The notes beneath the pieces were generated by a model. That model ran no database searches. It was not told where the DNA came from and worked only from the letters and a program-made list of their open reading frames with translations. Positions 9,051 through 62,400 of a stretch of 64,000 bases of DNA are shown one piece after another. Source of the stretch: an uncultured Clostridia bacterium (GTDB lineage Bacteria; Bacillota; Clostridia; Christensenellales; UBA1242); contig CALWNC010000002.1 in NCBI GenBank assembly GCA_944382715.1, positions 8,738 through 72,737 on the forward strand. Reading direction: 5' to 3'. Position 1 is the first letter of the stretch. The number at the start of each line of letters is the position of its first letter. The position numbers were made by a program, and so were the translations under genes.

Positions 9051-10073
9051 TTATCTTTGAACTCGACCTGATGCATCTCCACCAACGAGTTGTAAAACTT
9101 CAGCTTCTGAAACAAGATTAAAATCACCGGGAATTGTATGTTTAAGTGCACTTGCAGCAACTGCAAATTCCAGTGCTTTTTCCTGTTCATTCCACTTTAA
9201 AAGTCCATGAATTAATCCACCTGCAAATGAGTCGCCACCACCTACACGGTCAACAATAGGGTTAATATCATAGTGTTTTGACTCGTAAAAATCTTTTCCG
9301 TTATAAATTAATGCCTTCCAACCATTGTGAGATGCACTGTAAGATTCTCTAAGTGTTGAAACCACATATTTAAAATTAAACTCATTTAACATTTGCTCAA
9401 ATATTTTGTGATAGCCACTTGCATCAGTTTTTCCACTTAAAACGCTTGCATCAGGTTTAAATCCCAAGCAGAGCTCTGCATCTTCTTCATTACCGATACA
9501 AACATCAACATATTGCATAAGTGGTCGCATAACTGATATTGCCTTTTCACTTGTCCAAAGTTTTTTTCTAAAGTTTAAGTCACAAGATACTGTCACACCA
9601 TATTTTTTAGCAGTAATTAGTGCCTGTTTTAAAATTTCAGCAGTTTTATCGCTGAGTGCAGGAGTGATTCCAGACCAGTGAAACCAATCAGCATCTTTAA
9701 ATATCTTGTCAAAATCAAAATCTGAGGCTTCTGCCTCTGCGATAGAAGAATTAGCTCTGTCATAGATTACCTTACTTGGTCGCATAGAGTTTCCAGATTC
9801 TAGGTAATATATGCCAAGTCTATTACCACCACGAGCAATGTAGTCGGTATGAACGCCGTATCTTTGAAGAGCATTAACGGCAGATTGACCAATTTCGTGA
9901 CTAGGAACCTTACTTACAAAGTATGCATCGTTGCCATATCCTGCAAGTGATACGGCTACATTTGCTTCGCCACCACCATAACATACATCAAAATTTTGAG
10001 CCTGAACAAATCTTGAGTTTCCCTCAGTTGAGAGTCTGAGCATAATTTCGCCCATTGTAACTATCTTTGCCAT
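9051..10073 (-). CDS. kdgK: 2-dehydro-3-deoxygluconokinase (PfkB family)
   Basis: MGEIMLRLS...YGGGEANVAVSLAGYG at the N-terminus. C-terminal VDRVGGGDSFAGGLIHGLL ribokinase-family motif. Confidence 0.85.
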   Translation of the reverse strand: MAKIVTMGEIMLRLSTEGNSRFVQAQNFDVCYGGGEANVAVSLAGYGNDAYFVSKVPSHEIGQSAVNALQRYGVHTDYIARGGNRLGIYYLESGNSMRPSKVIYDRANSSIAEAEASDFDFDKIFKDADWFHWSGITPALSDKTAEILKQALITAKKYGVTVSCDLNFRKKLWTSEKAISVMRPLMQYVDVCIGNEEDAELCLGFKPDASVLSGKTDASGYHKIFEQMLNEFNFKYVVSTLRESYSASHNGWKALIYNGKDFYESKHYDINPIVDRVGGGDSFAGGLIHGLLKWNEQEKALEFAVAASALKHTIPGDFNLVSEAEVLQLVGGDASGRVQR

Positions 10074-38569: not shown

Positions 38570-40171
38570 ATGGCTATATTTAATTTATTTAAGATTAATG
38601 AAACAAGAAACGAAATTTTTAAAGAATTATATAATTCATCTAATAAATTTTCTGTTACTTGCGATGGTGAAGAATTTATTTTGACTTTATATACAGATGT
38701 AGAACAGTATCAACCTACATCATTAAGTTGGAACTGGTTACTAACTGAGGCTAAATTGAATGTAAAAACGTATTTTAAACAGCCAAAAGCAATTTTATAT
38801 TTAGTATATAATGATATTATTTATGCATTGTCTTTTGGTAGTGCGTTTTATGATGTAGATAAATATTGTGATAAAGACTTTGCATTTAATTTTGCAAGAA
38901 AATTTAAATATAAAAAAATCAAGTCGACTTCACAGGCAATTCCAAGTTCTAATAGAAATAAAATAATAAACTCTTATGTAAATAACGAATATTTTGAATA
39001 TGATACGGGTGGTGCATATTTAAAAATTAAAGGTCAAATTGTTGTAGAAGATGGATTTGATTTATTTAAAAATAATATTGAGGTAGGAACCTCGATAAAA
39101 TTTTCTGTCAATAATCCATCTTTTGAAAAATTTATTGAAATTGTCAAATATGTATCTAAGAAGTTAGAAGAGTCAACAGATCAATCTTTAATTCCCTTAT
39201 TTCAACCTATAAGAGATAAAGACAAAATAGAACAATTAAATAGTTTTATGTACAATAATTTTGATATAGATTCTTGTAATATTACATTTTCAGATTTTGA
39301 TATCATAGGAACTAATGAATATTTTTATTCTCAAAGTGCAGAGTATCGTGTATATTGTGATGGGAAAAGAGGTAGTCTTGACTATCTTTCTTTAGATAAA
39401 ATAAAAGAATTTTGTTTAAATAAAAATATAAATTATAAAGAAAAGTTTTTTGATATTTATGTTAAACTGGAAGGAGAGAATAAAGCACATTCAATTAGAG
39501 AGTTTATTGATTATCCAATTGAAAATGAGAACGCAGTTTTAATAAAAGGTGAATGGTATCAATATAATTCTGATTTTATAAATTCATTGGACGAATCATT
39601 AAATCATTTGAATTGTATTCATGATAAAAGATTCGATTGGAATGAAGATTTTTACAAAGATTTTATAAATAGTAAGAAACAAGAATTTAAATTAAAAGAG
39701 AAGTATAAAGATTATGATGATGAAGAATTAGTAGAAGCCATAACAAAAACCTTTTATAAGGAAAGGGTATTTAATGAGTATATAGCAGATAAGTATAACT
39801 TTATTTGTGGAGATAGAGTATTGACAAGACTTGATGGAGGGAATAGTATCGAACTAAATGATTTGTATAAAGACAATTGCATATATGCAGTAAAAATAGG
39901 AAATAGTTCAGGTAAATTATGTTATTGCGTAGACCAAATGGTAACAGCTATGAATTGTATAAAAAATAAAGTTGTCGAATTTAAACATGATATAAAAGAA
40001 GTATGTATAGTTTTATTAATAAAAAAACGTAGTGGTTATCCCGAAGGAGATGATAAATTTGATATAACAAGTCTGAAATATATAGCATTAAAGAATGCAC
40101 TGAATAGTTGGATGAAAGAAGCTAGAAATTTATTTTATGAGCCAAAAGTTATTATTGGTTATACTGATTAA
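38570..40171 (+). CDS. 533-aa orphan protein, possibly of the sporadically distributed TIGR04141/DUF6119-like type (recalled from memory, unverified)
   Basis: Stand-alone gene with its own terminator. N-terminal AILYLVYNDIIYALSFGSAFYDV...DFAFNFARKF and C-terminal IYAVKIGNSSGKLCYCVDQMVTAMNCI blocks. Confidence 0.35.
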   Translation: MAIFNLFKINETRNEIFKELYNSSNKFSVTCDGEEFILTLYTDVEQYQPTSLSWNWLLTEAKLNVKTYFKQPKAILYLVYNDIIYALSFGSAFYDVDKYCDKDFAFNFARKFKYKKIKSTSQAIPSSNRNKIINSYVNNEYFEYDTGGAYLKIKGQIVVEDGFDLFKNNIEVGTSIKFSVNNPSFEKFIEIVKYVSKKLEESTDQSLIPLFQPIRDKDKIEQLNSFMYNNFDIDSCNITFSDFDIIGTNEYFYSQSAEYRVYCDGKRGSLDYLSLDKIKEFCLNKNINYKEKFFDIYVKLEGENKAHSIREFIDYPIENENAVLIKGEWYQYNSDFINSLDESLNHLNCIHDKRFDWNEDFYKDFINSKKQEFKLKEKYKDYDDEELVEAITKTFYKERVFNEYIADKYNFICGDRVLTRLDGGNSIELNDLYKDNCIYAVKIGNSSGKLCYCVDQMVTAMNCIKNKVVEFKHDIKEVCIVLLIKKRSGYPEGDDKFDITSLKYIALKNALNSWMKEARNLFYEPKVIIGYTD

Positions 40172-40172
40172 T

Positions 40173-40200
40173 AAAATTGCCGATGTCGGCAATTTTATTT
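40173..40200 (+). terminator. perfect hairpin terminator
   Basis: aaaattgccga-tg-tcggcaatttt followed by Ts. Confidence 0.8.
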
Positions 40201-40210
40201 TGTGGATTGA

Positions 40211-40239
40211 TTGACTTAATTGCCGATATCGGCTATAAT
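40211..40239 (+). promoter_or_regulatory. near-consensus sigma-A promoter with a palindromic operator in the spacer
   Basis: ttgact, a 17-nt spacer and tataat. The spacer contains gccgatatcggc. Confidence 0.65.
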
Positions 40240-40272
40240 CTACAATAGAATAAAAATCAAGGAGTTTTGTTA

Positions 40273-40452
40273 ATGGGTGTTTTAACAGTTAGCGAAATCG
40301 CAAAAAAGTGGAAAATAAGCGAAAGGTCAGTGCGCAACTATTGCAAGCAAGGCAGAGTAAAAGGTGCGGAACAGAAAGGTAAATTATGGCTAATTCCTGA
40401 GGATGCTAAAAAACCAGAAAGAGTAGAACGCAAAATAATGTCTTGCAAATAA
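40273..40452 (+). CDS. small MerR/excisionase-type HTH protein (~59 aa)
   Basis: LTVSEIAKKWKISERSVRNYCKQGRVKGAEQKGKLWLIPEDA. aaggag lies upstream of the ATG at 40273. Confidence 0.7.
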   Translation: MGVLTVSEIAKKWKISERSVRNYCKQGRVKGAEQKGKLWLIPEDAKKPERVERKIMSCK

Positions 40453-40612
40453 TAATGTTCCGTTTATAATTAAAGATAAATACTAATTTTATTGCTTATC
40501 TGAACTAAAAGAGTGGAGCACTGGGTGTGGTCATTCAACAAATACTGTACGCGTTGTCAAGATGAATTTTAAATATTTGATATGTTTTACGATAGACAAA
40601 AGAGGAGATTAA

Positions 40613-41479
40613 ATGACGGATTTATTAGAATATATTAATGCTAAAAGGGAGACGGAATTATTTGATATTAAGGAGCATTATTACTCAACAGATAAGAAAT
40701 TTGATTTGATTAAGGATATTGTTTCGTTTGCAAATAATAAAAATAATAGTGATAAATATATAGCATTTGGTATAAAAGATAAGACATGGCAAGTTGTTGG
40801 GGTCAAAAAGAGTGATATTCCTCAGATATCTGATATTGAGCAATTTTTAAATCAATATATAGAACCAAATCTACAAATTAGTCTGGAATCATGCACCTTA
40901 AAAAATAAAACAGTGATTGCAATTAAAATACATGGTGATAATACGAATCGTCCATATATGATAAAAAAGACATCTCCAAATAATGGGAAAAGCTGTATTA
41001 GATGTGGTGAAATTTATTTAAGAAAAGGGACCATGAATTGTATAGCGAATCGAGTAGATATTGATGAAATTTATGCTTTAAACAATAATTTGGATGTTTG
41101 TTTGAAAACAGAAGATATAAAAATAAATGAAGTTATAGGACTATTAAAATCTGAAAAATATTTGTCATTAGATGTTCAATTTAATAATAATTTAAAAGAA
41201 AATTACAATATTCAAAAGATACATCTTAAAATTAAAATTAACAACGAGATTGTAGTACTAGATGAATGTAAAGAATCTATAGGGACAATAAGTAACAGTG
41301 ATCGCTATTTTATAAACCAAAATAGACCTCTTATTATACAACAAAGTAGTACTTGTTTTAGGTATCTTAATTTTAGGGTAGAACAAAATTTTGTTAATAA
41401 AATTAAGCAGGATAGCATTAAGTCTATCGAAATACTAATTAATGTAGGAAAAGATGAAAAAGATTATAAACTTATATGA
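40613..41479 (+). CDS. AlbA_2 / Schlafen-core-like domain protein (288 aa)
   Basis: N-terminal ETELFDIKEHYY...DLIKDIVSFANNKNNSDKYIAFGIKDKTWQVVGV fits the divergent-AAA/AlbA_2 pattern. The C-terminal half is unassigned. Confidence 0.5.
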   Translation: MTDLLEYINAKRETELFDIKEHYYSTDKKFDLIKDIVSFANNKNNSDKYIAFGIKDKTWQVVGVKKSDIPQISDIEQFLNQYIEPNLQISLESCTLKNKTVIAIKIHGDNTNRPYMIKKTSPNNGKSCIRCGEIYLRKGTMNCIANRVDIDEIYALNNNLDVCLKTEDIKINEVIGLLKSEKYLSLDVQFNNNLKENYNIQKIHLKIKINNEIVVLDECKESIGTISNSDRYFINQNRPLIIQQSSTCFRYLNFRVEQNFVNKIKQDSIKSIEILINVGKDEKDYKLI

Positions 41480-41492
41480 TAAGGAGTTTGGT

Positions 41493-42221
41493 ATGAACTA
41501 TTCACCATTAAGATATCCTGGTGGAAAAAATAAGTTATATCCCTTGGTAAAACTTATGATAAATAGAAAGAGTAATGATTTAACCTATATTGAGCCATTC
41601 GTAGGGGGAGGTGGGTTGGCACTTGCATTGTTATATAATGGAGATGTAAAAAAAATAGTAATCAATGATTATGATAAAGCGATATATTCTGTTTGGAGAG
41701 CAATATTAACAGAGACAAACAAATTTATAGACTTAATCAATAATACTCCTGTCACTATAGAAGAATGGTATCATCAAAGATCAATTTATTTAAATAAAAA
41801 TAAAAAATATTCATTAGAACTCGGTTTTGCTACTTTTTTTCTAAATAGAACAAATAGGTCAGGTGTTTTAAAAGCTGGACCAATAGGAGGTTATTCGCAA
41901 AAAGGAGTATATAAAATTGATTGTAGATATAATAAAGAACAATTAATTAAGAAAATAATAGATATCTCTAAAAATAAAAACAAGATAAAATTATACAATT
42001 ATGACATTAGAACTTTTATAAAAAAGATAATTCCATTATACAAGGACGCCTTTATATATTTTGATCCTCCATATTTTAATAGGAGAGGAAGATTGTCGAA
42101 ACTAACCTCTCGAACTTATCAAAATACTGAATTTATCAGCATTTATAAGTATGGTTTCCGCTTGAAAGGTATCTATTTTATATCAAATTTATATCAAAAA
42201 TATATCACGAAAATCATATAA
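41493..42221 (+). pseudogene. Dam-type (D12 class) N6-adenine DNA methyltransferase, 3'-truncated
   Basis: LRYPGGKNKL, FVGGGGLALALL, FIYFDPPY and YFISN are present. The roughly 50 C-terminal residues expected after the ISN block are missing, and the ORF runs into the recombinase 3' end. Confidence 0.65.
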
Positions 42222-43698
42222 AAATGCTAACTTCTTTTGATATATTTTGATAAGTTTTGCCATATTTGAAGGTTTTTTCATACCTTCTTTTTTTTATTAA
42301 ATTAAATGTAGAGTAGTTAGTATCGTAAGGACAATTTAAATAAATATCGACTGTGTCTTCATCTATTATTATTTTGTTTATTATGGAAGAAACAAATTCG
42401 TAGTCGTCTAGTTTTAAGGCATTTGAAAAATATTTTTTAATATATGGTTTTTTAAATTTTTCATTATCTTTACTATTTTCATAAAGTATTTCAGCATTTA
42501 GTTCAGTTATTCTGCTTTCAAGAAATTTTATTCTATTATTAGTTGTATCATTAACAATTCCATTTTCAACAGCTTGAATAAGATTGTTTAATGATTTTTC
42601 ACATTTAGCTTTTTCATCTTCATATTTTTTAAGCTGTTCCAGATTTTTTTTCTGCCTATATTTTGCTATAAGAATACTTGAGATTAAATCAATGTTATTA
42701 GAGTTTGAAATAAATCCTTTAATAAACGATGTTAAATAATCTTCAAGAAAAACTTTATTATAAGCCGTTGCATTGCATTTATGTATTCTTTTTTTATTAT
42801 GGCATTTATAATATCTGTAAGTTTTATTATATCTTGTAGTTCCATTATCAACATTAAAAAGTGCTCCACATTGTTTACAAAAAATTTTACCTCTATAAAT
42901 ATAAAGTTCTTTTATATTGCCTCCATGTCGGTAAGTTTTTTTAAGGGTGACAACTTTTTTAAATACATTCCTTTGAATGATGGGTGGGTAGATATCGTGA
43001 AAATATTCACCATCGTAATGATACAAACCAGTATAATATTCTTTCCTGAGAATTTTACGAACTGAATCTTCTGAAAATGGTTTGCCTGTTTTATAATAAA
43101 TTTTCTTTCTTCTAAGTTTCTTTGCTATATCCGTACAATGATGACCCATTAAATATTGTTTGAAAATAAACTTAACAACATCTGCCTCTTTTTCGTCTAT
43201 TATAAGTTTTTTATCTTTGATTTGATAGCCATATGGTCTGATACCACCATAATAATTTCCTTTCATTCTAGATTCTCTTAAACCACGCTTAACTTTTTGA
43301 GAGAGTTCAGCAGAGTAATATTGATTTAATCCTTCTAATAAACTTTCTAAGATTATGCCTTCAGGTGTGTCTGGAATGTTTTCCATAGCTGAAACAACAG
43401 TTACTCCAATGTCTTTCAAATTTTTTTTGTGAATAACAGATTCGTATTTATTTCTTGAAAATCTATCAAACTTATAAACTAAAATACAATCCCATTGTCT
43501 TTTTTTAGCGTCTGCTAACATTCTTTGAAATTCAGGTCGATTATCATTAGTGCCTGTCATTGCTCGGTCAACATAATATTCTAAAATTTTAATTCCATTT
43601 CTTTCGGCATATTCTTTACAAACACGCACTTGTCCTTCAATACTTTGCTCTGTTTGACTATCGCTAGAATATCTAGCATAGACAACAGATATTTTCAT
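42214..43698 (-). CDS. large serine recombinase
   Basis: VVYARYSSDSQ catalytic-serine motif and FDRFSRN. Recombinase domain plus a Cys-rich zinc ribbon (CKQCGALF...YYKCHNKKRIHKC) and a coiled-coil C-terminus. Confidence 0.9.
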   Translation of the reverse strand: MKISVVYARYSSDSQTEQSIEGQVRVCKEYAERNGIKILEYYVDRAMTGTNDNRPEFQRMLADAKKRQWDCILVYKFDRFSRNKYESVIHKKNLKDIGVTVVSAMENIPDTPEGIILESLLEGLNQYYSAELSQKVKRGLRESRMKGNYYGGIRPYGYQIKDKKLIIDEKEADVVKFIFKQYLMGHHCTDIAKKLRRKKIYYKTGKPFSEDSVRKILRKEYYTGLYHYDGEYFHDIYPPIIQRNVFKKVVTLKKTYRHGGNIKELYIYRGKIFCKQCGALFNVDNGTTRYNKTYRYYKCHNKKRIHKCNATAYNKVFLEDYLTSFIKGFISNSNNIDLISSILIAKYRQKKNLEQLKKYEDEKAKCEKSLNNLIQAVENGIVNDTTNNRIKFLESRITELNAEILYENSKDNEKFKKPYIKKYFSNALKLDDYEFVSSIINKIIIDEDTVDIYLNCPYDTNYSTFNLIKKRRYEKTFKYGKTYQNISKEVSIFI

Positions 43699-44196: not shown

Positions 44197-44301
44197 ATAA
44201 TTTTATAAAAATTAAAGTCGGATATAGTTATCCGACTTTTTATCTTTTCCTAATTTAAAAATAAATTAGATATTTTTTGGACTCAAATTCAATTAATAAA
44301 A

Positions 44302-44664
44302 TTATTTATATTCATTATATTTTTTATTGCAACCTTTAACTTTTTCAACTGGATATTTCTCATTGTTTTTTTCAATTTTTGATTTTATGGATTCAGATAG
44401 ATCTATATCATTCATTTGTGCAAATCTTAAAACAAAATAAAATACATCTGAAAGTTCTTCTTCAACTTCTTTTCTTTTTTCAGATTTCATAAGTTTTTCC
44501 ATGTCTGCTTCAGATTTAAATCTAAAAATTTGTAAAAGTTCATTCGCTTCAGTTGATATTCCTATTGCCAAATCTTTTGGATTATGAAATTGATCCCAAT
44601 CTCTTGCTTCGCAAAAGTCTCTTACAATTTTTTTTAGCTCTTCAATAGTTGATTCATTATCCAT
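44302..44664 (-). CDS. MazG-like nucleotide pyrophosphohydrolase (small all-alpha NTP-PPase)
   Basis: FCEARDWDQFHNPKDLAIGISTEANELLQIF...EEELSDVFYFVLRFA is the EExxE/D-type MazG/DCTPP1-like pattern. Confidence 0.75.
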   Translation of the reverse strand: MDNESTIEELKKIVRDFCEARDWDQFHNPKDLAIGISTEANELLQIFRFKSEADMEKLMKSEKRKEVEEELSDVFYFVLRFAQMNDIDLSESIKSKIEKNNEKYPVEKVKGCNKKYNEYK

Positions 44665-46531
44665 TATTAACTCCTAAAAGTTTTTTAATATAATTAGCTA
44701 AAGGTTTATCTTCACAATAAATATAACAACCTTTTTGGCCTCTTGTTAAAAGTGTTTTATATGTATTTTTTATAAGAACATTTGCCAGTTTATCACTTGA
44801 ACTTCTTATACCTGAAGATTTATCATCTTTAGAAATCATAGTTCTATCTGTTATAACTTCTCCCTTAGACTCATCAAATCTTACATCCTTACCAATAATA
44901 ACTCCAACATAATCAAACTCTAAACCTTGTGCTGTATGGATACAACCAACTTCTTCAAAGGATTTTGGGTTCACAGCCCATAATTTATCATCTTCCAAAT
45001 TCCATTTTGCTTTAAATCCATTTTCCAAAATGATATCAAAATCGCCACGTTTATTCTTAACATTCCAATCATAGCAATATCCAGCAACCATTCTTGCTTT
45101 ATTATGTTCTTTATTTTTTTCTCTAAGAAAATCTCTCATTTCATTTGGATCATCGAACACTTTTATATCAAAATTAAGATCACTAAAATCAATTTCAATA
45201 AATTCACCTATTTGCAAAATATCATTCACTAATTGTATATATTGATCACTTCCATTACACCTAAATTGAGAGCGTAATATTGTGCTTTCATTTTCAATGA
45301 CTCTACTGCCTAGCATGTTTGCCCATTTATGAATTTCTTCTATAGAACCTATATCTTTATTTGTTATTCTTTGATCTTCATCAATTAAGAAAATTGTAAA
45401 TAAAGATGCTGCTATACATTCTTTTACTTGATTTTCACCATAGAAATCACCATACATTTTTTTAACCAATCTATGAGCTTCGTCTACAATAAGGCAATCA
45501 TATGCGTTCTCTGGCACATGACTTAATCCAAAAGGGGATCTAAATAATTGTTTTATATTTACTGCTTTTTTTAGATCTGAATTTGCTAACAAATTAAGAT
45601 ATACTTCTCTAGGAGCACTATTTTTAGTTACATAACTTGCATTTAATTTTTGTTGAGTAAACTCATTTAATAAATTTATTGCAAGTACTGATTTTCCAGT
45701 TCCTGGACCTCCTTGAATTATGATTGTTCTCTTTTTCATATCTTTAAGGCATTGTTTCATTATTAATTTACACATATCAAATGCAACAACTTGATCGTCT
45801 AATAATACAAATTCCTTATTACCTTTCATTAAAGATACTAAATAATCTTGCAATGCTTTAGATGGCTTAATTCTTCCATTATCAATCTCATAGAGTAAAT
45901 CTCCATTGGTTGATTTTTTATAAATATATTTTTTTATAAAATTTCTCATTTCCATTACTTGATTTTTAATGAAAAAAGGTGCTTCATCGTACCAAACTTT
46001 ATAAATTTTATCATTCAATGCATCTAAATATTGTGGTTCATAATTGTGAAGATAGGCACATGGTATAACTCCAATATGTTGGTCTACTATTTGATCAGAA
46101 GAATTTTTTATAAAAACAGCATAAGAATATGCTTGATATGATGGATGGCTTACATCTCTATAATTATGTCCTGTATATGTTCTAACACTATGCAACATTT
46201 CATCATCTATTTTTTCAGCTTTTTGCCATTGCTTTAATTCTATAACAACAACATTATCATTACCATTTTTATCAGCTCCAGAAATAATAAAATCAACCCT
46301 TTTAGAAGTTCTGGGAAGTTGGTACTCGATAGTAATACCAGCATCCTCAGGTATTTCTTTATCATTTAACACCATCTTCATAAAGGGAAGTGAATTTTGC
46401 CAAGCGTTATACTCACTTTCTTGTCCACCAGATAATCCTTTTTCTCTTAATTTATTATAAATAATATCCGAAATTTGATTCATCTCTACATCATAATCAA
46501 ATTGCTTTTTTGAAGTATTGTAAACAATCAT
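44657..46531 (-). CDS. DUF2075-type (Schlafen-helicase-like) SF1 ATPase with an N-terminal PD-(D/E)xK-like module
   Basis: RVDFIISGADKNGNDNVVVIELKQW is nuclease-like. Walker A is IIIQGGPGTGKSVLAINLL and Walker B is CLIVDEAHRL. The C-terminal motif is IHTAQGLEFDYVGVIIG. Overlaps the MazG-like gene by 8 nt. Confidence 0.7.
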   Translation of the reverse strand: MIVYNTSKKQFDYDVEMNQISDIIYNKLREKGLSGGQESEYNAWQNSLPFMKMVLNDKEIPEDAGITIEYQLPRTSKRVDFIISGADKNGNDNVVVIELKQWQKAEKIDDEMLHSVRTYTGHNYRDVSHPSYQAYSYAVFIKNSSDQIVDQHIGVIPCAYLHNYEPQYLDALNDKIYKVWYDEAPFFIKNQVMEMRNFIKKYIYKKSTNGDLLYEIDNGRIKPSKALQDYLVSLMKGNKEFVLLDDQVVAFDMCKLIMKQCLKDMKKRTIIIQGGPGTGKSVLAINLLNEFTQQKLNASYVTKNSAPREVYLNLLANSDLKKAVNIKQLFRSPFGLSHVPENAYDCLIVDEAHRLVKKMYGDFYGENQVKECIAASLFTIFLIDEDQRITNKDIGSIEEIHKWANMLGSRVIENESTILRSQFRCNGSDQYIQLVNDILQIGEFIEIDFSDLNFDIKVFDDPNEMRDFLREKNKEHNKARMVAGYCYDWNVKNKRGDFDIILENGFKAKWNLEDDKLWAVNPKSFEEVGCIHTAQGLEFDYVGVIIGKDVRFDESKGEVITDRTMISKDDKSSGIRSSSDKLANVLIKNTYKTLLTRGQKGCYIYCEDKPLANYIKKLLGVNNG

Positions 46532-47004
46532 AAATTAATCCTCTTACCCGAATTATATCATAAAAATAAAAAAATGTATTAAATAAACATACATTTTTTA
46601 TTTAAATATATAAATCTAGTTTAATTTGCTTTCGTAGTGGCTTGGTTTTCATATGTGTAATAAGAAAAAACTTTGCAATAGATAAATCTATTAATTTGTG
46701 CCTTTATTTAGTAAAAATATAAATTTCCAATAATGGCAAAAAAGGGGCCTCTATCATCTTTACAAACTATTATTTAATAAGCTAATGTTAAGGTCTTATT
46801 GTTATTTCGGAAAAATAAGTTCCTAAATTTTTAAAAAATCTACTCGTATCTTTTTACGAAAGAAAAGACGAACAGAAAATAAAATACTTTATGAGCAAAA
46901 CTAATGGAAAGAATTTTAAAATAAATTAAAAGCTGTTATTATTAGTAACATTATAATTAATTGTGATGATATAAGATTATTTCAATAATAGAAAAGTATA
47001 TAAA

Positions 47005-48147
47005 TTATTCATTATCTTTTGTTGTATATCTATCTATTTCATAATTTAATTTATCAATTTCATCATTTAATTTTGCTGTTTCATTAATTATATCTTCCTT
47101 ATTATTTAATAAATATTTAAGATAATACAATTTCTCATTTTCAGAAAGTTTTTTACTATTCGCAATAATATTAAATATCTTTTCATACACATCATATTTA
47201 TATGATAAATTCATAACTTTATTTTTTAATCCATTTATTTTGTAATGTCTAATATTTTTATTCATGAAAACATAATCAAAAAATGTTTCATCGTTTATGT
47301 TAATTGGTTCAATTTTTACTTCTTCTAATATTTTTTCATCTATATTGGTTGTTGAAAACTTTAAAAAACTTTCTAAAGTATACATATGAAATATTCTATT
47401 ATTTGTTTCAGACATAAATTCTTTTCTTAGTTCAATCCTTGGACCTATCGTTTTTCCATTTATTATATTCCACCAATCAGGTTTTTTATCATTGGTTATA
47501 AATATTACATCTTTATTATTATCCTTAGCATATTTAATAATTTCTTTCCATATTATTAAATCACCATATATATTATTTAATATATCACTGTTCTTTTTTT
47601 TAGACTCATCTTTATATCCAGGAGGAATTTCTTTTTTGAATCTTTCTTCGCCCTCTTTTTCAATTAATGCTATTTCGTCAGAAGTATAACTAATACCTGT
47701 TTTACCTTCAAATAATTCTAGTAATTTTTCTAATATTATATCCTTATTAAAATCTTTTACTAACAAATTTTCATTACAATGTTTATCAATCCATTTATTT
47801 AATTTATTGGAGTAATTTAAACATTCCTCATTTGAATCATTTATATTAAATACATTAGATAATTTTTTTAAATATGTTTTAGTTTCTTCTTTTAATTCTT
47901 CATAATTTTTTATATTATCTAATATTATCTTTATCCTGTTTTTCATAAATTCTTCTGCTATTTGATGAGGCATCCAAATTCGATCTTTAATTTTTTTAAT
48001 GGCATCAAAAAATGCGTCCCTCGCATCATTTGTTAAGCCATACAATCTTAAAAATATATTTGTATCAAAAATAAATGTTGCTTTATTCCATAATTTTGAT
48101 TTTTCAGTTGTATTTAATTCAATATATTCCTTTATAGAATTTCTCAT
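47005..48147 (-). CDS. PIN-like domain protein (380 aa) with a coiled-coil C-terminus
   Basis: ATFIFDTNIFLRLYG...DRIWMPHQIAEEFMKNR and DVIFITNDKKPDWW blocks, typical of stand-alone PIN-like nucleases. Confidence 0.55.
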   Translation of the reverse strand: MRNSIKEYIELNTTEKSKLWNKATFIFDTNIFLRLYGLTNDARDAFFDAIKKIKDRIWMPHQIAEEFMKNRIKIILDNIKNYEELKEETKTYLKKLSNVFNINDSNEECLNYSNKLNKWIDKHCNENLLVKDFNKDIILEKLLELFEGKTGISYTSDEIALIEKEGEERFKKEIPPGYKDESKKKNSDILNNIYGDLIIWKEIIKYAKDNNKDVIFITNDKKPDWWNIINGKTIGPRIELRKEFMSETNNRIFHMYTLESFLKFSTTNIDEKILEEVKIEPININDETFFDYVFMNKNIRHYKINGLKNKVMNLSYKYDVYEKIFNIIANSKKLSENEKLYYLKYLLNNKEDIINETAKLNDEIDKLNYEIDRYTTKDNE

Positions 48148-48266: not shown

Positions 48267-50036
48267 TTATTCTTTTTTAGAAAAATATTGCTTTACTAAT
48301 AGTTCTACTCTTTGATTACAAGATTTGTCATTTATATTTTCTTCTTTTAATTTAATTAAATAATTGTATAAGTCATCTTTGCATTCTTTAATATTATTTA
48401 CTACAACTTGACATATTAAATGATTTAATTGCCATGAGTCTTCTGTGATATCATTTGTTATATTTGTTAAATAAAAATTATTAGACTTTAACAATTTAAG
48501 TATAGCTTTCTTTGTATCGTCATTATATGTATCAAAATTTTTAGAAATTTTTGCAATAATGCTTCCAATATTTTTTTTGTTTGATTGATTCAGCTCTTGT
48601 ACAATATCAAAGTTTTCTCTTTCCTTACAATAATCTTCATATTTTTTAGCCAACAACTTAAACTTATTATTATTTTCTCCAATTAAATTAAATTTAAATT
48701 GCAACTCTTTTAATTTATTAAATAGTCTATCTTCATCAATAAAGCTCAAATCTAAATAATCATAATATGAACACCATTCATTTAAGAACTGATTAATTAG
48801 ACTATAACTATATTTGTTTTTGTTAGGCATACCCAGTATGTAGTCAAATCGTTTTTTTGCAGCTTTAATTTTATTTTTGTCAGATAAGTAAAAACAACTT
48901 TCAAAAAGAACTTTATTATTTTTATTATCCCCAAAAAAATCATCAATAAAAGAAATATTGTTTTTATCATTAACCAAATAAACACAATGTAAATACCTAT
49001 TAAAATTTGGCTCGATTGAATTTTGTGGTATACCAAATTTATTCTTATTATAAAATGTTATAGATCCTATAACCGAATTATCAAAAAACATTAAGTTCGC
49101 TTTATCTTTTATACTATTATTTAAATCATTGGTATATTTATGAGTAAAACTTTCAATTGTTATATACATACAACATCTAAATAATATTTTTAAATCCACG
49201 TTTTTATATTTCTTATTGTTTATATAATTTTTCAAAATATTAAACAGTCTATTAGTTTTGATAAGTAAACGAAGATTTTTATTAAATTCTTTTAATCCAT
49301 CTTCTTCAATATAACCTTTATTATTTCCCAATATTTCAAGCATAATATCTTCTGGAGTTTCATCTATCGTGTATATTTTATCAAATACTTTTTCTTTATA
49401 TTCTCCTAAAATATCTTCACCCCAATTTACTTTAGAAACTACATAAGTTTTTTCATCAATCTCTAAATTATACTTATTTTTAAGTTTTCCATATTTACAT
49501 TTTAAATCTGCTAAAACAACAACTTTAAAACCTTGTAGTATTAAGTTATTTATATAACCCAATAAATCGTCATTTGAAATTAAATCGCTTTTTCTTTCAA
49601 AATCATCAATAACAACTAAATATTTCTTCTTTAGTTTATTATTACTTTTATTTAAAGAAATGCTATTGGAATCTATTTTTGCTTCAGCACTAACTTTTAA
49701 ATTATCACTTAATTTTAAATCATAATTAATTTTTGCATTAATATTAATTAATTTAACAGCACAACTAATTATTGTTAAAACTTGATTTTTTTTCTTATTA
49801 ATCAAATTGTATAGTTCAGTATTTACTTCATCTAAACTTTTTTTACCAAATAATGAAATATAATAAAATTTCCATTTTTTATGTTTCTTTTTAATTTTTT
49901 TATCATTTAAAAATAACTTAGCTTGATATGTTTTTCCAATACCCCAATCACCATCAAATAAAATTGCACTAAGATCACTATTTAAAAAATTATCTAATTC
50001 ATTATAAATCTCATTTACTTTCATAATTGCTCCCAT
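48267..50036 (-). CDS. KAP-family P-loop NTPase (589 aa)
   Basis: FDGDWGIGKTYQAKLF Walker A, LVVIDDFER Walker B, and a long helical C-terminus. No obvious TM insert. Confidence 0.65.
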   Translation of the reverse strand: MGAIMKVNEIYNELDNFLNSDLSAILFDGDWGIGKTYQAKLFLNDKKIKKKHKKWKFYYISLFGKKSLDEVNTELYNLINKKKNQVLTIISCAVKLININAKINYDLKLSDNLKVSAEAKIDSNSISLNKSNNKLKKKYLVVIDDFERKSDLISNDDLLGYINNLILQGFKVVVLADLKCKYGKLKNKYNLEIDEKTYVVSKVNWGEDILGEYKEKVFDKIYTIDETPEDIMLEILGNNKGYIEEDGLKEFNKNLRLLIKTNRLFNILKNYINNKKYKNVDLKILFRCCMYITIESFTHKYTNDLNNSIKDKANLMFFDNSVIGSITFYNKNKFGIPQNSIEPNFNRYLHCVYLVNDKNNISFIDDFFGDNKNNKVLFESCFYLSDKNKIKAAKKRFDYILGMPNKNKYSYSLINQFLNEWCSYYDYLDLSFIDEDRLFNKLKELQFKFNLIGENNNKFKLLAKKYEDYCKERENFDIVQELNQSNKKNIGSIIAKISKNFDTYNDDTKKAILKLLKSNNFYLTNITNDITEDSWQLNHLICQVVVNNIKECKDDLYNYLIKLKEENINDKSCNQRVELLVKQYFSKKE

Positions 50037-58217: not shown

Positions 58218-59204
58218 TTAATCATTATATTGATTTTGCATTTCATTAATAATAGATTTAATCTTATTTCTAGTTTCAAGTGGCTCTAGAATTTCAACAT
58301 ACTGACCATATTGAAGAGCCCAGAAAATTAATGACTCTTCATTAACTTTCAAACTAGCAATAATTTCATTATCAATCTTTTCAAGATTTACATCTTTTCC
58401 AAACCACTCAATAAAATCATTAACTTTATCTTCCGTGTTAATTTTTACCTTTGCTTTAACAGATTTTCCAAAAGCCATATAGATATGTTCTTTTATATAT
58501 TCTTTCATTGAAAAATTTTCTTGATTGGATAGGGTATTAATAGGCTTAACATCTTCGTCAAGAATTTTAATATTTGAAATAAAATCTATCTTGTAATTTG
58601 AAAGGTCATTATATTTATTATAATTGCAAACAAGATAATATTTACCCTTATTATTAACCATAAAATATGGATTGATTTTATAAAATTTACCATCACCTTT
58701 AAGTTTAATTTTTTTATCAATACCATAAGCTCCATATTGAAATTCAACTTTCTTTTTCTTTTCAATGGCTTCACTCAAAATTTCAATATTTAAAAATATT
58801 TCTTTATTGTCATTTATAATTTCATCATCTATTTTTTCAAGGTATTTATATTTCTTCTTTTTGTAAATACTTAAATTTTTAGTAAGCTTATCAACCAAAT
58901 CCTTTACATATCTTGTTGGCATTGAATGAGAGGAGTAAATTGCGTCAATTAAATATAAAAGTTCACCTTCTTCAAAGTCTCTAAAACCTAAATATAAACC
59001 ACGATTACCTTTTTTAACGATATCATATCCGAAATTTTGCAGAATAGAAACATCTCTCGCAACTGTTTTTCGTTCAATCTCGATACCAAAGGTATTGTAA
59101 AGTTTATTTTGTATCATATCATAAGTTAATAAATGAGTTTCATCAGAATATTGCTTAAGAACTTTAAGAGTATATAAAATAGACCCTTTCTTTTCGTTTA
59201 ACAT
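58218..59204 (-). CDS. WYL-domain transcriptional regulator (wHTH-WYL-WCX; BrxR/CapW/PafBC-like layout)
   Basis: N-terminal wHTH (LTYDMIQNKLYNTFGIEIERKTVARDVSILQNFGYDIV). WYL block (FYKINPYFMVNNKGKYYLVCNYNKYNDLSNYKIDFISNIKIL). Confidence 0.7.
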   Translation of the reverse strand: MLNEKKGSILYTLKVLKQYSDETHLLTYDMIQNKLYNTFGIEIERKTVARDVSILQNFGYDIVKKGNRGLYLGFRDFEEGELLYLIDAIYSSHSMPTRYVKDLVDKLTKNLSIYKKKKYKYLEKIDDEIINDNKEIFLNIEILSEAIEKKKKVEFQYGAYGIDKKIKLKGDGKFYKINPYFMVNNKGKYYLVCNYNKYNDLSNYKIDFISNIKILDEDVKPINTLSNQENFSMKEYIKEHIYMAFGKSVKAKVKINTEDKVNDFIEWFGKDVNLEKIDNEIIASLKVNEESLIFWALQYGQYVEILEPLETRNKIKSIINEMQNQYND

Positions 59205-59250
59205 TTCATCCTCCAGAATTTTATAGTATTACATTATTAGTATAGCATAC

Positions 59251-59276
59251 TTAAAATCCTAAAAAAAGGATTTTAA
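59251..59276. promoter_or_regulatory. 10-bp-arm palindrome in the WYL/helicase divergent intergenic region (candidate operator)
   Basis: ttaaaatcct-aaaaaa-aggattttaa. Confidence 0.35.
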
Positions 59277-59470
59277 AATTAAATTAATTGCAACGTGTGA
59301 GACTTGTCCTGAATAAGATAAGAAGACACATAATTGTCAATTTTATTAAAAATCTGTATTCATACAATACTTTTATTTGGAATTTAATTAAAAAATTTTA
59401 TAATTATTAATAATAATTAATATTCAATAATTTCATGTTATGATATACTCATATTAGAGGAGATTCTTTT

Positions 59471-62400
59471 ATGTTTAAATTATTTGGCCGAAATAAAGAT
59501 GTCCCTGAAGAAGTAAAACAAATTTTGAAATACAACGAAGAGTTAAAATCTTTAATTAACTCTGATAATTATCTTTCTAGAAAAGATTGTTTTTATATGA
59601 TTGGAAAATATGCTGAGGTTTATAATTTTTTTAAAACAATTTATACATCTCAATTGATTAAATCATATTCAAAGAAAAATGGTGTTGATATAAATGTTAT
59701 AACAAATTTTCTAAGTGACTATGAAAATTTTAATAAAATAATAGCTTCAAGGAATAATTCATATGTAGAAGAGAAATTGAAAGTTGAAAAAGAATATTTG
59801 GATAACATATTAAAAGAAGTTGATCCCAAAATTTTATTGGATAATGATCAAAGAAAAGTTATTTTAACAGATGAAGATTATTGTTTAGTTATTGCAGGTG
59901 CTGGTGCTGGAAAAACTACGACGGTTGCAGCAAAAGTTAAATATTTGGTTGAAAGGAAAAAAATAGATCCTAAACAAATATTGATTATTTCTTTCACTAA
60001 TAAGGCTGTTGGTGAATTAAGAGAAAAAATAAATAAAGATTTAAATATAGATTGTCCAATTACTACATTTCACTCTGCAGGCAATGCTATATTGAGAAAA
60101 AAAACTGATGAAAAATTAAATATTGTTGAAGGTGGATTTTTATATAATTCAGTTAGAGATTATTTTATTCACAAAATTAAAGATAAAAGAGTTGCGGATA
60201 ATATAGTTTTATTTTTTGGTAGTTATTTCGAAACTCAATATGAAGGAACTAATAAGAATGAGTATTTAAACCATATTATTAAATCTGACTTTTCTACAAT
60301 GAAAAGTAATTTGAATGAATATCAATATCAAGGAATTATTAATAACAAAAAGGTTACTTTGAATAATGAAATTGTTAATTCTGTTCAAGAGTTAAAAATT
60401 GCAAATTTTTTATACTTAAATGGTGTTGATTATGAATATGAACCTATTTATCCATATCATATCTTCATGGCAAAAAAAAGATATACTCCAGATTTTTTAA
60501 TTAAACAAAATGGAAAACTTTTATATCTTGAGCATTTTGGAATTTCAGAAAGTGGTCAAAATAATAGATTTTCGCCAGATGAACTTCAAAAATATAAAAA
60601 GCACATTAATGATAAAATATTAATTCACAAAAAGCATAATACTAATTTAATTTATACTTTTTCTGAGTATAATGATGGTGTTGATTTTATTGAACATTTA
60701 AGAGCCCTTTTATTAGATAATGGTATTAATTTATCACCAAAACCATCTGAAGAAATTCTTGATAAATTAAGTAAAATTCAAGAGAACAAATATATTTCTA
60801 AAATGGTTTTCTTAATTTGTGATTTTATTAGTAATTTTAAGGTAAATGGATACACAGAAGAAAAATTTTATGAATTTATAAGAACAACAAAAAGTGAAAG
60901 AACAAAGTTGTTTTTGGAAATTTGTAGAGAATGTTATTTAGAATATCAAAAAGATCTTGCAAAAAATAATGCTGTTGATTTTCAAGACATGATAAATGAT
61001 GCTGCTAGAGCTTTACGAGAAGTAGAAAGTTTGAAAAGTAAGTTAGATTTTAGATATATAATAATTGACGAATATCAAGATATTTCAAGACAAAGATTTG
61101 ATATGGCAAAAGAGTTATCAAAAGTTACGGATGCTAAGATTATTGCAGTAGGTGATGATTGGCAATCAATATTTGCATTTAGTGGTTCAGATGTTTCTTT
61201 GTTTACTAAATTTTGTGAAAAAATGGGCTATGGAGAAGAATTAAAAATTACAAGAACATATCGTAATGCTCAAGAAGTTATTGATATTGCTGGTGGTTTT
61301 ATCCAAAAAAATGATGCACAAATAAAAAAATCTTTAATTTCACCAAAACATATTGAAGATCCAGTCATTATTGTAAGCTATGATGATAGTCCAAAAAAAT
61401 ATGATGAAACAGCTAAAGAGGCTGGTCCTTTGTATAAAATGGCTGAAGCATTGGAATATGCTATTTCTGAAATTATTAACAAAACAGGAAAGGAAAGTAG
61501 TATTTTACTCATTGGTAGGTATAATTATGATGGTGAAAACTTAACAAGAACAGGAAAATTTGATTATAATACTAAAGGTAATAGAGTAATTTCTAAAAAA
61601 TTTCCATCTGTAAATATTACATTTTTAACAGCACATAGTTCTAAAGGTTTAGGATATGACAATGTTATTATTATAAATGCTAAGGATGCTATTTATGGTT
61701 TTCCTTCTAAAATTGAAGATGATCCAGTTATGAAGCTTGTAACAAAACAAGATAATGAGATTGAGTATGCTGAAGAAAGGAGATTATTTTATGTTGCTCT
61801 AACTAGAACAAAAAATAGAGTTTATTTAATTGTCCCAGAAAAGCATCCTTCAGAGTTTGTTATGGAAATTAAAAATGAATATAATAATATTGTTTTGAAA
61901 GGAGAAGAATTAAAGCCAGAACAAAGAACGTTGATGACTAAAAATTTATGTCCAATATGCGGATATCCTTTACAACGAAGATACAAAAAAGGATGTTCTA
62001 TGAATTTATGGGTTTGCACAAATGAACCTGAAGTTTGTGGATTTTTATCTAACAATTTAATTGGTGGAAAAATGTCTATACAAAAATGTCCAGATTGTTT
62101 AGATGGATATTTGATAGTAAAGACAAAAAATAATTATCCATTTTTAGGTTGTACAAATTATAAATCAGATGGTACTGGATGTAACCATACTGTTTCGTTA
62201 AAGGATTTTGAATTGCAAGGCAATGATGATTCAATTGTTGAAAAAGAAAATGTTGAAAAATTATCTAATGATATAACAGAAACATCATTATTTGATTTAT
62301 CATTAATAAAAAAAGATTCAGAACAACCTAAAATGTCAGAATCTATTGAAGATAAAAGTGAAGATGAGGAGAAAAATCCATATTATTTTTCAGATAAAAA

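Follow-up and report, generated by a model that had tools for sequence, protein, structure and literature searches.

The analyzed stretch of 64,000 nucleotides, referred to as the window, contained two overlapping genes on the minus strand that were predicted to encode a nuclease-helicase and a MazG-like pyrophosphatase (Table 1). Both reading frames described in an earlier note on this DNA were recovered at the same positions. The helicase gene ends in ...GGA GTT AAT AAT GGA TAA, and the start of the MazG gene is embedded in it as ATG GAT AA. The AAGAGG ribosome-binding site lies 8 nt ahead of the helicase ATG. The putative promoter was recognized by consensus resemblance only; it has no -35 element and was hence absent from the list of a generic promoter scan. 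The hairpin downstream is placed between the MazG stop and a convergent DUF7695 gene, and the region contained five terminator-like sites, compared with 0.5 expected from shuffles. Neither a credible small ORF nor an above-threshold Rfam match was found in the 473-nt region upstream. These signals indicate that the gene pair has its own putative promoter, ribosome-binding sites, and terminator.

Table 1. Features of the helicase-MazG gene pair, with positions in the window.
Feature	Position	Strand	Evidence
Helicase gene, 624 aa; NERD-like PD-(D/E)xK N-terminus and DUF2075/Schlafen-group-3 SF1B helicase	44657..46531	-	ORF, PF09848, AF2, Foldseek, hhalign
Nuclease-like core, aa ~60-165; invariant E69, D80, E98-x-K100	46037..46354	-	Alignments, AF2 model, alignment with Nhi-like
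Helicase core, aa 267-608; Walker A G274-GPGTGKS-281, Walker B D350-E-A-H353	44708..45733	-	Pfam, invariant columns, fold search
MazG-like gene, 120 aa; DCTPP1/RS21-C6-type all-alpha NTP pyrophosphatase	44302..44664	-	PF12643, PDB matches, metal residues
Junction: 8-nt overlap ATGGATAA (44657-44664), with AGGAG ribosome-binding site (44671-44675) ahead	44657..44675	-	Sequence reading
Putative operon promoter and ribosome-binding site: extended -10 TGATATAAT (46552-46560), AAGAGG (46540-46545)	46540..46560	-	Sequence reading
Bidirectional intrinsic-terminator-like hairpin, 11-bp stem, 4 GC pairs	44214..44239		Terminator scan

The 624-aa protein matched the SLFN-g3_helicase/DUF2075 family (PF09848) over its helicase core with an E-value of 5.9e-94 and a score of 315.7 bits (cut-off, 24), and the full profile (1-354) was covered. 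Walker A (GGPGTGKS) and the D350-E-A-H353 motif were invariant across the homologue alignments. An AF2 model built from 41 sequences (down to 49% identity) reached a pLDDT of 76; a shallow alignment (16 sequences, at least 69% identity) gave a pLDDT of 56 and an unusable model. The top Foldseek matches of the former were nsp13, RecD2, SLFN14, Dna2, Upf1, and Dda, all with a probability of 1.0, and these results, obtained with the full model, were dominated by the helicase core, so that the nuclease fold was not separable. Single-sequence and profile searches of PDB sequences with the helicase returned P-loop matches only. The family comprised 622 clusters at 50% identity (E <= 1e-30) and showed 46-72% identity across phyla. 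Approximately 12 representatives had 785-826 aa, and an S24 peptidase (LexA/UmuD-type) was present in the four examples checked. In longer representatives of the family, the extra length consisted of an S24 peptidase, PIF1, Sel1, or unassigned sequence. None of those tested was a MazG-helicase fusion, and no Pfam domain of a modified-base reader (SRA, PUA, EVE, or DUF3427) was detected in the 624-aa protein.

The nuclease-like motif that had been quoted for the N-terminus was located at V79-D80-F81-I-I ... V-V-I-E98-L-K100-Q-W, and both halves of the architecture originally proposed, a nuclease-like N-terminus and a DUF2075/Schlafen-type SF1 ATPase, were borne out. Residues E69, D80, E98, and K100 did not vary in any of the 41-47 aligned homologues, the most distant of which share 21-31% identity. 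In the AF2 model the order of elements was helix 38-55, strands 65-71, 78-86, and 92-100, helix 130-144, and strand 154-161. Taken together, alignments and model fit a predicted alpha-beta-beta-beta-alpha-beta core that carries the (E)...D...(D/E)-x-K residues expected for catalysis. Among the 47 N-terminal domains compared, 13 gave weak matches to NERD (best E 0.0013), and HSDR_N_2 or PDDEXK_11 was matched by a few others. The N-terminus of the 624-aa protein itself had no Pfam match to a PD-(D/E)xK member, and a profile search of this domain against the PDB found nothing.

The 120-aa protein matched the MazG-like family PF12643 (E 8.9e-14; 51.9 bits, cut-off 27). Among solved structures it was closest to 4qgp, a pyrophosphatase from an archaeon (2.8e-21), and to DCTPP1 of mouse and human (7.9e-20), in agreement with the MazG/DCTPP1-like identity first assigned to it. 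Its active site was intact. The metal-binding residues E39, E42, E70, and D73 (E-x-x-E ... E-x-x-D) were invariant in 39 sequences and 100% conserved in 47. The protein shares the fold family and metal ligands of DCTPP1 (RS21-C6), and the C-terminal KYP...KY tail is kept. At the positions of the cytosine pocket, seven of the eight residues compared were kept or aromatic (F17, W23, F26, H27, F49/W, F77/Y, and Y104, matching F41, W47, F50, H51, W73, Y102, and Y129 in DCTPP1); these seven include the Trp sandwich, which is aromatic in the window's copy. The eighth position, His38 of DCTPP1, which was proposed as a cytosine selectivity filter, is V14 in the window's MazG and variable across the family. 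The window's copy further departs from its family at Q45, F49, and S72. Family members are minimal catalytic domains of 104-120 aa that carry no regulatory or sensor module. DCTPP1 cleaves C5-modified dCTPs (PMC7162842, PMC13291643); in contrast to the MazG described here, it is a stand-alone eukaryotic housekeeping enzyme with no known nuclease partner.

Conservation of the linkage was assessed in 80 species-level genomes from at least seven phyla; contigs carrying an identical protein all represented the same element and were uninformative on this point. The co-occurrence count that the earlier note had called for showed a MazG gene near the helicase on the same strand in 46 of the 80 loci. 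It lay within ~170 nt in approximately 40 of them (~29-30 upstream and 11 downstream), and in five further loci it was located 0.6-4.8 kb upstream with intervening genes. MazG was the sole widely conserved neighbor (44 of 79 loci), the next family being present in 10 loci. Starting reciprocally from MazG, a DUF2075 helicase was found nearby in 27 of 63 assessable metagenome loci, and these helicases were only 26-46% identical to that of the window. Gene order was clade-specific and inverted between clades, with junctions ranging from -13 to +166 nt, and a Mantel r of 0.39 was matched by 0 of 2000 permutations. MazG subtypes were also swapped, with a non-orthologous MazG replacement inside a 75%-identical helicase clade, and on Bacillus thuringiensis plasmids a different NTP-PPase and a 25%-identical DUF2075 helicase lay together in one short same-strand cluster with an HNH gene between them. 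These results indicate that the pairing is not due to chance and that the two genes form one functional unit. The possibility that the adjacency is fortuitous or merely inherited and that the proteins act independently would agree with the many loci without MazG and with the absence of fusions among the candidates tested; it was already disfavored and is close to negligible, because the linkage survives changes of gene order, exchange of MazG subtypes, and movement between phyla and between domains, and is recovered reciprocally from MazG.

On the other hand, MazG was missing from 29 of 74 assessable loci (39%) and is therefore dispensable for whatever the helicase does; it is an accessory, not an obligate, partner. 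The 8-nt overlap that the earlier note reported is present in the window, whereas the co-translation that it was taken to imply does not hold as a family trait, because the overlap is not conserved and the order inverts. The conserved feature is co-transcription rather than translational coupling.

Homology of the window to two related loci (L172 and L173) begins at the helicase ATG and stops at the MazG stop, the surrounding mobile or defense settings being unrelated. No conserved synteny was found beyond the pair. The cassette occurred in an ICE-like element (ArdA, PcfK, PcfJ), beside a C5-MTase/IS21, beside dndBCDEA, and on plasmids, and its neighbors across loci included Mokosh, Hhe, HNH nucleases, mads genes, and PDC candidates, which supports the mobile and defense-like setting initially suggested for the pair. 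One copy from Methanobrevibacter (an archaeon) was 47% identical to the window's helicase, as were many Bacillota copies, and this flat identity across phyla and domains points to horizontal transfer. To judge from its sequence distribution, the cassette is a horizontally mobile two-gene unit that is present in many phyla of bacteria and in some archaea. Among the neighbors listed earlier for the window, a PIN_8 gene (E 8.8e-54) and a large serine recombinase were confirmed, whereas the gene labeled KAP (48267-50036) had no Pfam match and corresponded only to the PADLOC candidate PDC-S49 (4e-17). An AlbA_2 gene does lie at 40613 (E 1.3e-15), across the recombinase from the cassette; it is not part of the cassette, beyond whose edges the homology to relatives does not extend. 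In four loci, a large AAA_5 ATPase gene was located 8-15 nt downstream of MazG, and a possible link of MazG to McrB has weak PADLOC support.

The pair was unnamed in the profile libraries and literature searched, and a PADLOC-type scan of the kind that had been proposed matched it to no system, with weak matches to DUF2075 models. The view that it is not a named system therefore stands for the pair, but not for the helicase half, which is a remote homologue of Nhi-like and is not unprecedented. Nhi-like is a validated single-gene anti-phage protein (system SG141 from Bacillus cereus FSL H8-0482; Millman et al., 2022). Hhalign gave 96.9% probability and an E-value of 1.8e-10 over 271 collinear columns, a comparison restricted to the N-terminal 399 residues of the validated protein (611 in full), and the E, D, and E-x-K residues as well as the Walker A and B motifs were aligned between the two. 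Both are composed of an N-terminal PD-(D/E)xK nuclease, a linker, and a DUF2075 helicase, with ~23% identity. Phages escape Nhi-like by losing a DNA methylase (Stokar-Avihail et al.), which agrees with the modified-DNA context of the helicase-MazG family described below. In contrast to this family, which often has a MazG partner, the Nhi-like gene was validated alone, without a pyrophosphatase neighbor. Nhi-like is likely a functional analogue of the 624-aa protein. Nhi of Staphylococcus epidermidis (SERP2475) also combines a nuclease and a DUF2075 SF1B helicase in one polypeptide, and its immunity needs the nuclease and helicase motifs alike (Bari et al., 2022); it is a single-gene system rather than a pair, and its phages escape by mutations in core replication proteins, not by methylase loss (Stokar-Avihail et al.).

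Membership in several PADLOC models was considered and rejected because the matches were low-scoring and incomplete. The Nhi model scored 52.8 bits, with aa 58-476 aligned to positions 49-377 of its 470, and relatives reached 36-54 bits via the helicase core only; PDC-S41 gave 67 bits in two stretches, the best covering only aa 21-120; and AbiO gave 57 bits at aa 167-477. Across the family, these three models scored 36-67 bits. MazG is flagged by DefensePredictor as a predicted, unvalidated defense domain, and the corresponding candidate was rejected as the same system, as it consists of MazG plus a MazG-C kinase and includes no nuclease-helicase. The human Schlafens of group 3 (SLFN11, SLFN5, and SLFN14) share the helicase Pfam family, and SLFN14 is one of the top structural matches; their N-terminus is an AlbA_2-type RNase instead of PD-(D/E)xK, and they have no known link to DCTPP1.

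In approximately 10 loci, a SauUSI-type mREase_IV gene (E 1.6e-226) lay a short distance away in the same orientation, and a MutT-like NUDIX gene corresponding to PADLOC PDC-S07 (1.7e-49) was present in eight. The cassette, mREase_IV, and NUDIX usually formed one tight same-strand array, for example in the order MazG-mREase_IV-NUDIX-helicase with gaps of 6-13 nt (L057). NUDIX was also considered as a substitute in loci that lack MazG, and this was rejected because MazG was present in six of the eight NUDIX loci. SauUSI is an ATP-driven nuclease-motor protein that cuts DNA containing 5mC or 5hmC (PMC3141236), and MutT homologues have been reported beside SauUSI homologues (Bell et al., PMC7641849). 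Such loci likewise place an ATP-driven nuclease-motor beside a small nucleotide pyrophosphohydrolase, but the components differ: SauUSI-type enzymes have a PLD nuclease, an SF2 motor, and a DUF3427 reader, whereas the 624-aa protein has a PD-(D/E)xK-like nuclease, an SF1B motor, and no recognized reader, and the pyrophosphatase is a NUDIX rather than an all-alpha MazG. The association with SauUSI-type genes, taken with the analogy to Nhi-like, probably points to a link with the restriction of modified (methylated) DNA, which goes beyond the generic nucleic-acid sensor plus nucleotide-pool hydrolase that the earlier note had envisaged. One close relative adjoins a C5-cytosine methylase gene, which is awkward for indiscriminate targeting of 5mC.

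The preferred interpretation, with a probability of roughly 0.55, is that the cassette is a mobile, modification-linked nuclease-helicase defense with an accessory sanitizer of modified dCTP. The 624-aa protein would be the effector: its SF1B motor would load onto invading DNA and move along it, and its N-terminal PD-(D/E)xK (NERD-like) nuclease would meanwhile degrade this DNA. The preferred target would probably be modified (methylated or hydroxymethylated) foreign DNA, given the Nhi-like analogy and the recurrent operonic association with SauUSI-type enzymes. MazG would cleave derivatives of dCTP, with C5-modified dCTPs as the likeliest substrates, to yield the monophosphate. Two benefits would follow, either of which may be the one that matters: the phage would be deprived of its modified precursor, and modified nucleotides, whether of phage origin or set free by the breakdown of modified DNA, would be kept off the host chromosome, which the cell's own modification-dependent nucleases would otherwise attack.

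Alternatively, the pair may act in abortive defense by nucleotide depletion, in a manner resembling dCTP-deaminase and dGTPase defenses; the helicase-nuclease would then mainly sense phage DNA or replication, and an activated MazG would drain canonical dCTP or another dNTP. DCTPP1 has a high affinity for dCTP itself and hydrolyzes it (PMC7162842), a complex of the two proteins would be compatible with their tight operonic coupling, and dNTP-depleting defense enzymes are already known. These defenses share the dNTP-pool theme with the cassette, but their enzymes and partners differ and include no nuclease-helicase. We consider this mechanism rather unlikely because MazG carries no regulatory or sensor module, because its absence from 39% of loci, set against the invariant nuclease residues, makes the nuclease look like the effector, and because the frequent NUDIX and modification-dependent nuclease companions suit sanitation better than bulk depletion.

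A role outside defense, in which the pair processes damaged or stalled replication intermediates, cleans the dNTP pool, and is mobile by happenstance, is unlikely. Such a maintenance function would fit the high conservation across phyla, the S24 peptidase (a DNA-damage-responsive module) of the four longer representatives checked, the housekeeping sanitizer role of DCTPP1 in eukaryotes, and the many DCTPP1-like MazG genes found in housekeeping contexts (PurU, RlmL, and CheZ). However, synteny is not kept outside the pair, which was found on ICEs, on plasmids, and near Dnd, Mokosh, type IV REases, and HNH nucleases; the flat cross-domain identity suggests horizontal transfer, and the helicase is homologous to a validated defense protein. 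It is highly unlikely that the cassette is cargo serving the mobile element in anti-defense or establishment, like leading-region genes of conjugative elements. Both the window and L173 do have the cassette beside the ArdA/PcfK/PcfJ block of a conjugative element, and MazG enzymes are known from phages. Nevertheless, it is transcribed divergently from the ArdA/PcfJ genes, many of its contexts are non-conjugative, and among 2.9 million viral contigs the family-specific motif was present in just 2. This count is from a motif-specific rescan, since generic P-loop matches had swamped the results obtained with the helicase profile.

If the modification-linked defense interpretation is correct, a widespread family that is unrecognized by PADLOC 2.0 would be assigned to anti-phage or anti-plasmid defense. 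The pairing of a nuclease-helicase with a DCTPP1-type MazG, undescribed in the libraries and literature searched, would represent a new type of accessory for defense systems, namely a nucleotide sanitizer beside a DNA-degrading effector. The interpretation would also account for the recurrence of small pyrophosphatases (MazG and NUDIX/PDC-S07) in defense islands and would suggest concretely how a cell that harbors modification-dependent nucleases escapes harm to its own DNA once modified nucleotides have entered its pool. A prokaryotic genetic link would also be provided between Schlafen helicases and DCTPP1, two human families that have been studied separately in the contexts of antiviral defense and cancer drug response.

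A more tentative idea, which we regard as possible but doubtful, is that dNTP-pool sanitation forms the self-immunity arm of modification-dependent restriction, a kind of inverted restriction-modification. The DCTPP1-like MazG, sometimes with a MutT-like NUDIX, would free the chromosome of modified cytosines and starve the phage, while the Schlafen-type nuclease-helicase, often with a SauUSI-type enzyme, would destroy modified DNA. As an equally tentative corollary, Schlafen-helicase and DCTPP1 could be an ancient immune module, both halves of which persist in animals, and an unrecognized functional link between Schlafen group 3 and DCTPP1 would be predicted. The cassette has a size of 2.2 kb and is directly clonable.

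Both open reading frames of the pair were found on the minus strand exactly where the earlier note had placed them, and the 8-nt overlap that it described is real, the MazG start (ATG GAT AA) being embedded in the 3' end of the helicase gene (...GGA GTT AAT AAT GGA TAA). No known RNA family and no credible ORF were detected when the 473-nt gap 5' of the helicase gene was searched for RNA families and small ORFs. Owing to the overlap, the ribosome-binding sites, the putative -10 element, the terminator and this empty gap, the two genes are predicted to form a self-contained bicistronic operon.

Coordinates of the cassette, of other genes in the window and of arrays in related loci
Feature	Position	Strand	Remark
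624-aa nuclease-helicase ORF	44657..46531	-	sequence read
120-aa MazG ORF	44302..44664	-	sequence read
MazG RBS, AGGAG	7 nt 5' of MazG ATG	-	sequence read
Putative extended -10, TGATATAAT	46552-46560	-	5' of helicase, sequence read
AAGAGG site	8 nt ahead of helicase ATG	-	sequence read
Strong bidirectional hairpin terminator	44214-44239	.	3' of MazG
RHS-repeat protein, 1965 aa	20306-26203	+	GC 0.33-0.35, about 0.26 elsewhere
DUF6119/TIGR04141 'sporadically distributed' protein, HTH_17 excisionase-like gene, AlbA_2 protein	38570-41479	+	AlbA_2: PDC-S50, 1.4e-22
Dam-type MTase	41454-42221	+	PADLOC PD-Lambda-5_B, 4.4e-85, only profile positions 4-220 of 291
Large serine recombinase	42214-43698	-
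PIN_8 gene	47005-48147		adjoins KAP-like gene
KAP-like protein, 589 aa	48267-50036	-	Walker A GDWGIGKT; PADLOC PDC-S49 (4e-17) sole match, no Pfam
WYL/WCX regulator; 1373-aa UvrD-type helicase	58218-63592		divergent; two C-terminal HRDC domains in helicase
MazG-mREase_IV-NUDIX-helicase	L057:2136-7962	same strand	gaps 6-13 nt
mREase_IV-NUDIX-helicase-MazG-HNH	L014:2594-9438	same strand
MazG-helicase-mREase_IV	L047:4607-9996	same strand
Further multi-gene arrays	L078:6001-13157, L041:740-7878	same strand
dndBCDEA, 109-aa gene, helicase-MazG cassette	P0011 contig (GCA_016648615.1), 1-8214 of the listed locus	same strand

The helicase family is large, with at least 8000 hits in word-indexed searches and 622 clusters (50% identity) at E ≤ 1e-30 in an exhaustive search. 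A scan limited to a single genome for each species yielded at least 554 relatives, and the best 80 of these (46-72% identity; Bacillota, Bacteroidota, Pseudomonadota, Actinomycetota, Spirochaetota, Fibrobacterota and one methanogen) were used for locus counts. DCTPP1-like MazG genes lay on the same strand in 46 of these 80 loci, within 170 nt of the helicase in about 40 (mostly within 30 nt or overlapping), and 0.6-4.8 kb upstream with intervening genes in five further loci. MazG was upstream of the helicase in roughly 29-30 loci and downstream in 11, an order that was clade-specific: downstream in the clade of the window, upstream in a Bacteroidales clade and most others. No other neighbour was conserved: MazG was present at 44 of 79 loci, the second commonest family at 10. 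MazG is regarded as an accessory rather than an obligate partner, because it was missing from 29 of the 74 assessable loci (39%). The divergences of the two proteins were correlated (Mantel r 0.39, 0/2000 permutations); helicases 79% and 75% identical to that of the window were accompanied by MazGs 76% and 73% identical, and a third (75%) by a MazG of another subtype (42%). Partners have thus been exchanged despite the correlated divergence. Starting from MazG in metagenomes, 63 loci could be assessed: 27 had a DUF2075 helicase nearby, which in 22 adjoined MazG directly on the same strand, and helicases only 26-33% identical to that of the window were among them. No MazG-helicase fusion was found among the candidates tested. 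The two genes might be independent of each other; however, because their linkage outlasts order inversion, subtype replacement and inter-phylum transfer, there is strong evidence that they are functionally coupled.

Related arrangements were also observed. Bacillus thuringiensis plasmid pBT62A (locus L169, 2322-6752) encodes on one strand an NTP pyrophosphohydrolase of a different all-alpha subtype, an HNH endonuclease, a DUF2075 helicase (25% identical to that of the window) and an HD-domain protein, and many megaplasmids of B. thuringiensis and B. cereus have the same arrangement. Two loci (L038 and L071, about 6001-9773) carry tandem DUF2075 helicase paralogues downstream of a single MazG, and L041:5047-5988, directly upstream of a helicase, encodes a 313-aa fusion of SAM-dependent methyltransferase and MazG-like domains.

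The 624-aa protein matched PF09848 (SLFN-g3 helicase, formerly DUF2075) at aa 267-608 (E 5.9e-94), and Walker A (GGPGTGKS) and Walker B (DEAH) were invariant in family alignments. Its AF2 model (41-sequence alignment, pLDDT 76) resembled the SF1B helicases nsp13, RecD2, Dna2, Upf1, Dda and human SLFN14 in a fold search (probability 1.0). The N-terminal 260 residues gave no significant match in Pfam or PDB sequences; E69 ... D80 ... E98-x-K100 were invariant there in homologue alignments, and the modelled order of strands and helices would fit a PD-(D/E)xK core. Weak NERD matches were obtained independently from 13 of 47 diverse N-terminal domains, and HSDR_N_2 or PDDEXK_11 from a few, with no rival fold recurring among the 47. 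No modified-base reader domain was detected in the protein. A sizeable subgroup of the family (L053:1110-3500, L068:6001-8475, P0178, P0310) carries a C-terminal LexA/UmuD-type Peptidase_S24 domain, which hints at control through RecA/ssDNA or autocleavage; among the top 150 representatives, about a dozen have lengths of 785-826 aa.

The 120-aa protein is a DCTPP1/RS21-C6-type all-alpha pyrophosphatase (PF12643, 8.9e-14), with solved relatives in archaea (4qgp, 2.8e-21) and in mouse and human (DCTPP1, 7.9e-20). No substitution of the metal ligands E39, E42, E70 and D73 was seen in an alignment of 39 sequences or in a set of 47 homologues linked to helicases (100% conservation). Of eight DCTPP1 pocket positions compared, seven were conserved or still aromatic, the exception being His38. 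The window copy belongs to a long-loop subtype and itself has the unusual residues Q45, F49 and S72; many MazG relatives are housekeeping genes.

Scores against the PADLOC 2.0 models for Nhi, AbiO and PDC-S41 were low (36-67 bits), both for the window protein and for its relatives, and arose mainly from the helicase core; membership in these modelled systems was therefore ruled out. Comparison of the family profile by hhalign with Nhi-like, a validated single-gene defence protein of B. cereus (sequence from the supplement of Millman et al., 2022), gave 96.9% probability (E 1.8e-10). The 271 aligned columns are collinear and run from the nuclease domain as far as Walker B, with catalytic residues in register; pairwise identity is about 23%. 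Phages escape Nhi-like by loss of a DNA methylase, and methylated phage DNA is thus what sensitises them. In its native plasmids, the validated gene does not adjoin a pyrophosphatase gene, the 'MazG' candidate of DefensePredictor has a different partner, and no mention of DUF2075 together with MazG was found in the searchable literature. The proposal of the earlier note, that the pair is anti-phage cargo of an unnamed kind, was largely right in spirit but needs refinement: the helicase half is of the broad Nhi-like kind, and the novelty lies in its conserved DCTPP1-type partner and in a wider tie to nucleotide sanitisers and modification-dependent restriction.

The homology that the window shares with its close relatives L172 and L173 is bounded by the helicase start codon and the MazG stop codon; the two genes therefore move as one cassette. 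In the window, the cassette lies in an ICE-like element that also encodes a large serine recombinase, ArdA, PcfK and PcfJ; PIN_8, KAP-like (PDC-S49), AlbA_2 (PDC-S50), Dam-type MTase, WYL regulator and UvrD-HRDC helicase genes are further neighbours there. It accompanies a C5-methylase/GHKL ATPase pair with IS21 in one relative and a second PcfJ-type element in another. On the P0011 contig it directly follows a dndB-C-D-E-A phosphorothioation cluster and a 109-aa gene, and may serve there as restriction partner of the Dnd modification module. Family copies also occur on bacterial and archaeal plasmids. Immediate neighbours in the 80 loci were heterogeneous (Mokosh, Hhe, HNH nucleases, mads genes, several PDC candidates, a type IV enzyme) and included unrelated metabolic genes. 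Among 2.9 million viral contigs, only 2 had the family-specific motif, and 4 phage records hold a relative. All these observations fit a horizontally mobile defence gene and do not fit a conserved housekeeping operon, the outcome that the earlier note had set against its proposal. One 22-kb record of hypothetical proteins only ('Microcystis phage Mwe-JY31', PP438423.1, L088) holds a MazG-helicase cassette of 44% identity at 5657-7863, and is either a rare phage-borne copy or not a phage.

About 10 of 79 loci encode a SauUSI-type PLD-helicase-DUF3427 protein (PADLOC type IV enzyme model mREase_IV, E 1.6e-226) near the cassette and on its strand, usually in one gene array, and MutT-like NUDIX genes are neighbours in 8 loci (full-length match to PADLOC candidate PDC-S07, 1.7e-49). 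The arrays, which combine these two with the DUF2075 nuclease-helicase, MazG and sometimes an HNH nuclease, may represent a larger 'modified-DNA restriction plus sanitation' supermodule. SauUSI cleaves 5mC and 5hmC DNA (PMC3141236), and MutT homologues beside SauUSI homologues were noted earlier by Bell et al. (PMC7641849). DCTPP1 hydrolyses both dCTP and dCTPs modified at C5, presumably keeping them from being misincorporated (PMC7162842, PMC13291643). Four metagenome loci (L111:1798-5527, L112, L122:972-4513, L158) contain a DCTPP1-like MazG followed after 8-15 nt by a 704-1065-aa protein with a C-terminal McrB-type AAA_5 domain (and in L111 by a 421-aa gene); this may be another pairing of MazG with modification-dependent restriction, with weak PADLOC matches.

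Judged from sequence, the 2.2-kb cassette is conserved and mobile, and encodes an intact nuclease-helicase and dNTP pyrophosphatase, predicted to be co-transcribed, the former remotely homologous to a validated defence protein. The helicase-nuclease would degrade invading DNA, probably favouring DNA that is modified, and MazG would hydrolyse modified dCTPs. This would starve phages that build modified genomes and keep modified nucleotides out of the host chromosome, shielding the host from its own modification-dependent nucleases. Caveats to this reading are the C5-methylase beside the cassette of one relative, the lack of a detected reader domain in the helicase protein, the loss of His38 in MazG and the many MazG relatives that are housekeeping genes. 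Alternatively, the pair could act through regulated dCTP depletion, serve the element itself or function in DNA repair, the last being favoured by the LexA-type S24 fusions in part of the helicase family.

The last 8 nt of the Dam-type MTase ORF overlap the 3' end of the recombinase gene, and the recombinase-bearing element may have integrated into this MTase gene. On the far side of the recombinase, the genes around AlbA_2 look like a second defence-type cluster. The KAP-like and PIN_8 genes may form a separate two-gene module, and both are absent from the related element L173. The WYL/WCX and UvrD-HRDC genes, at the element's far end, are a further pair that resembles a defence island, and the RHS-repeat gene, with its raised GC, may be a polymorphic toxin locus.
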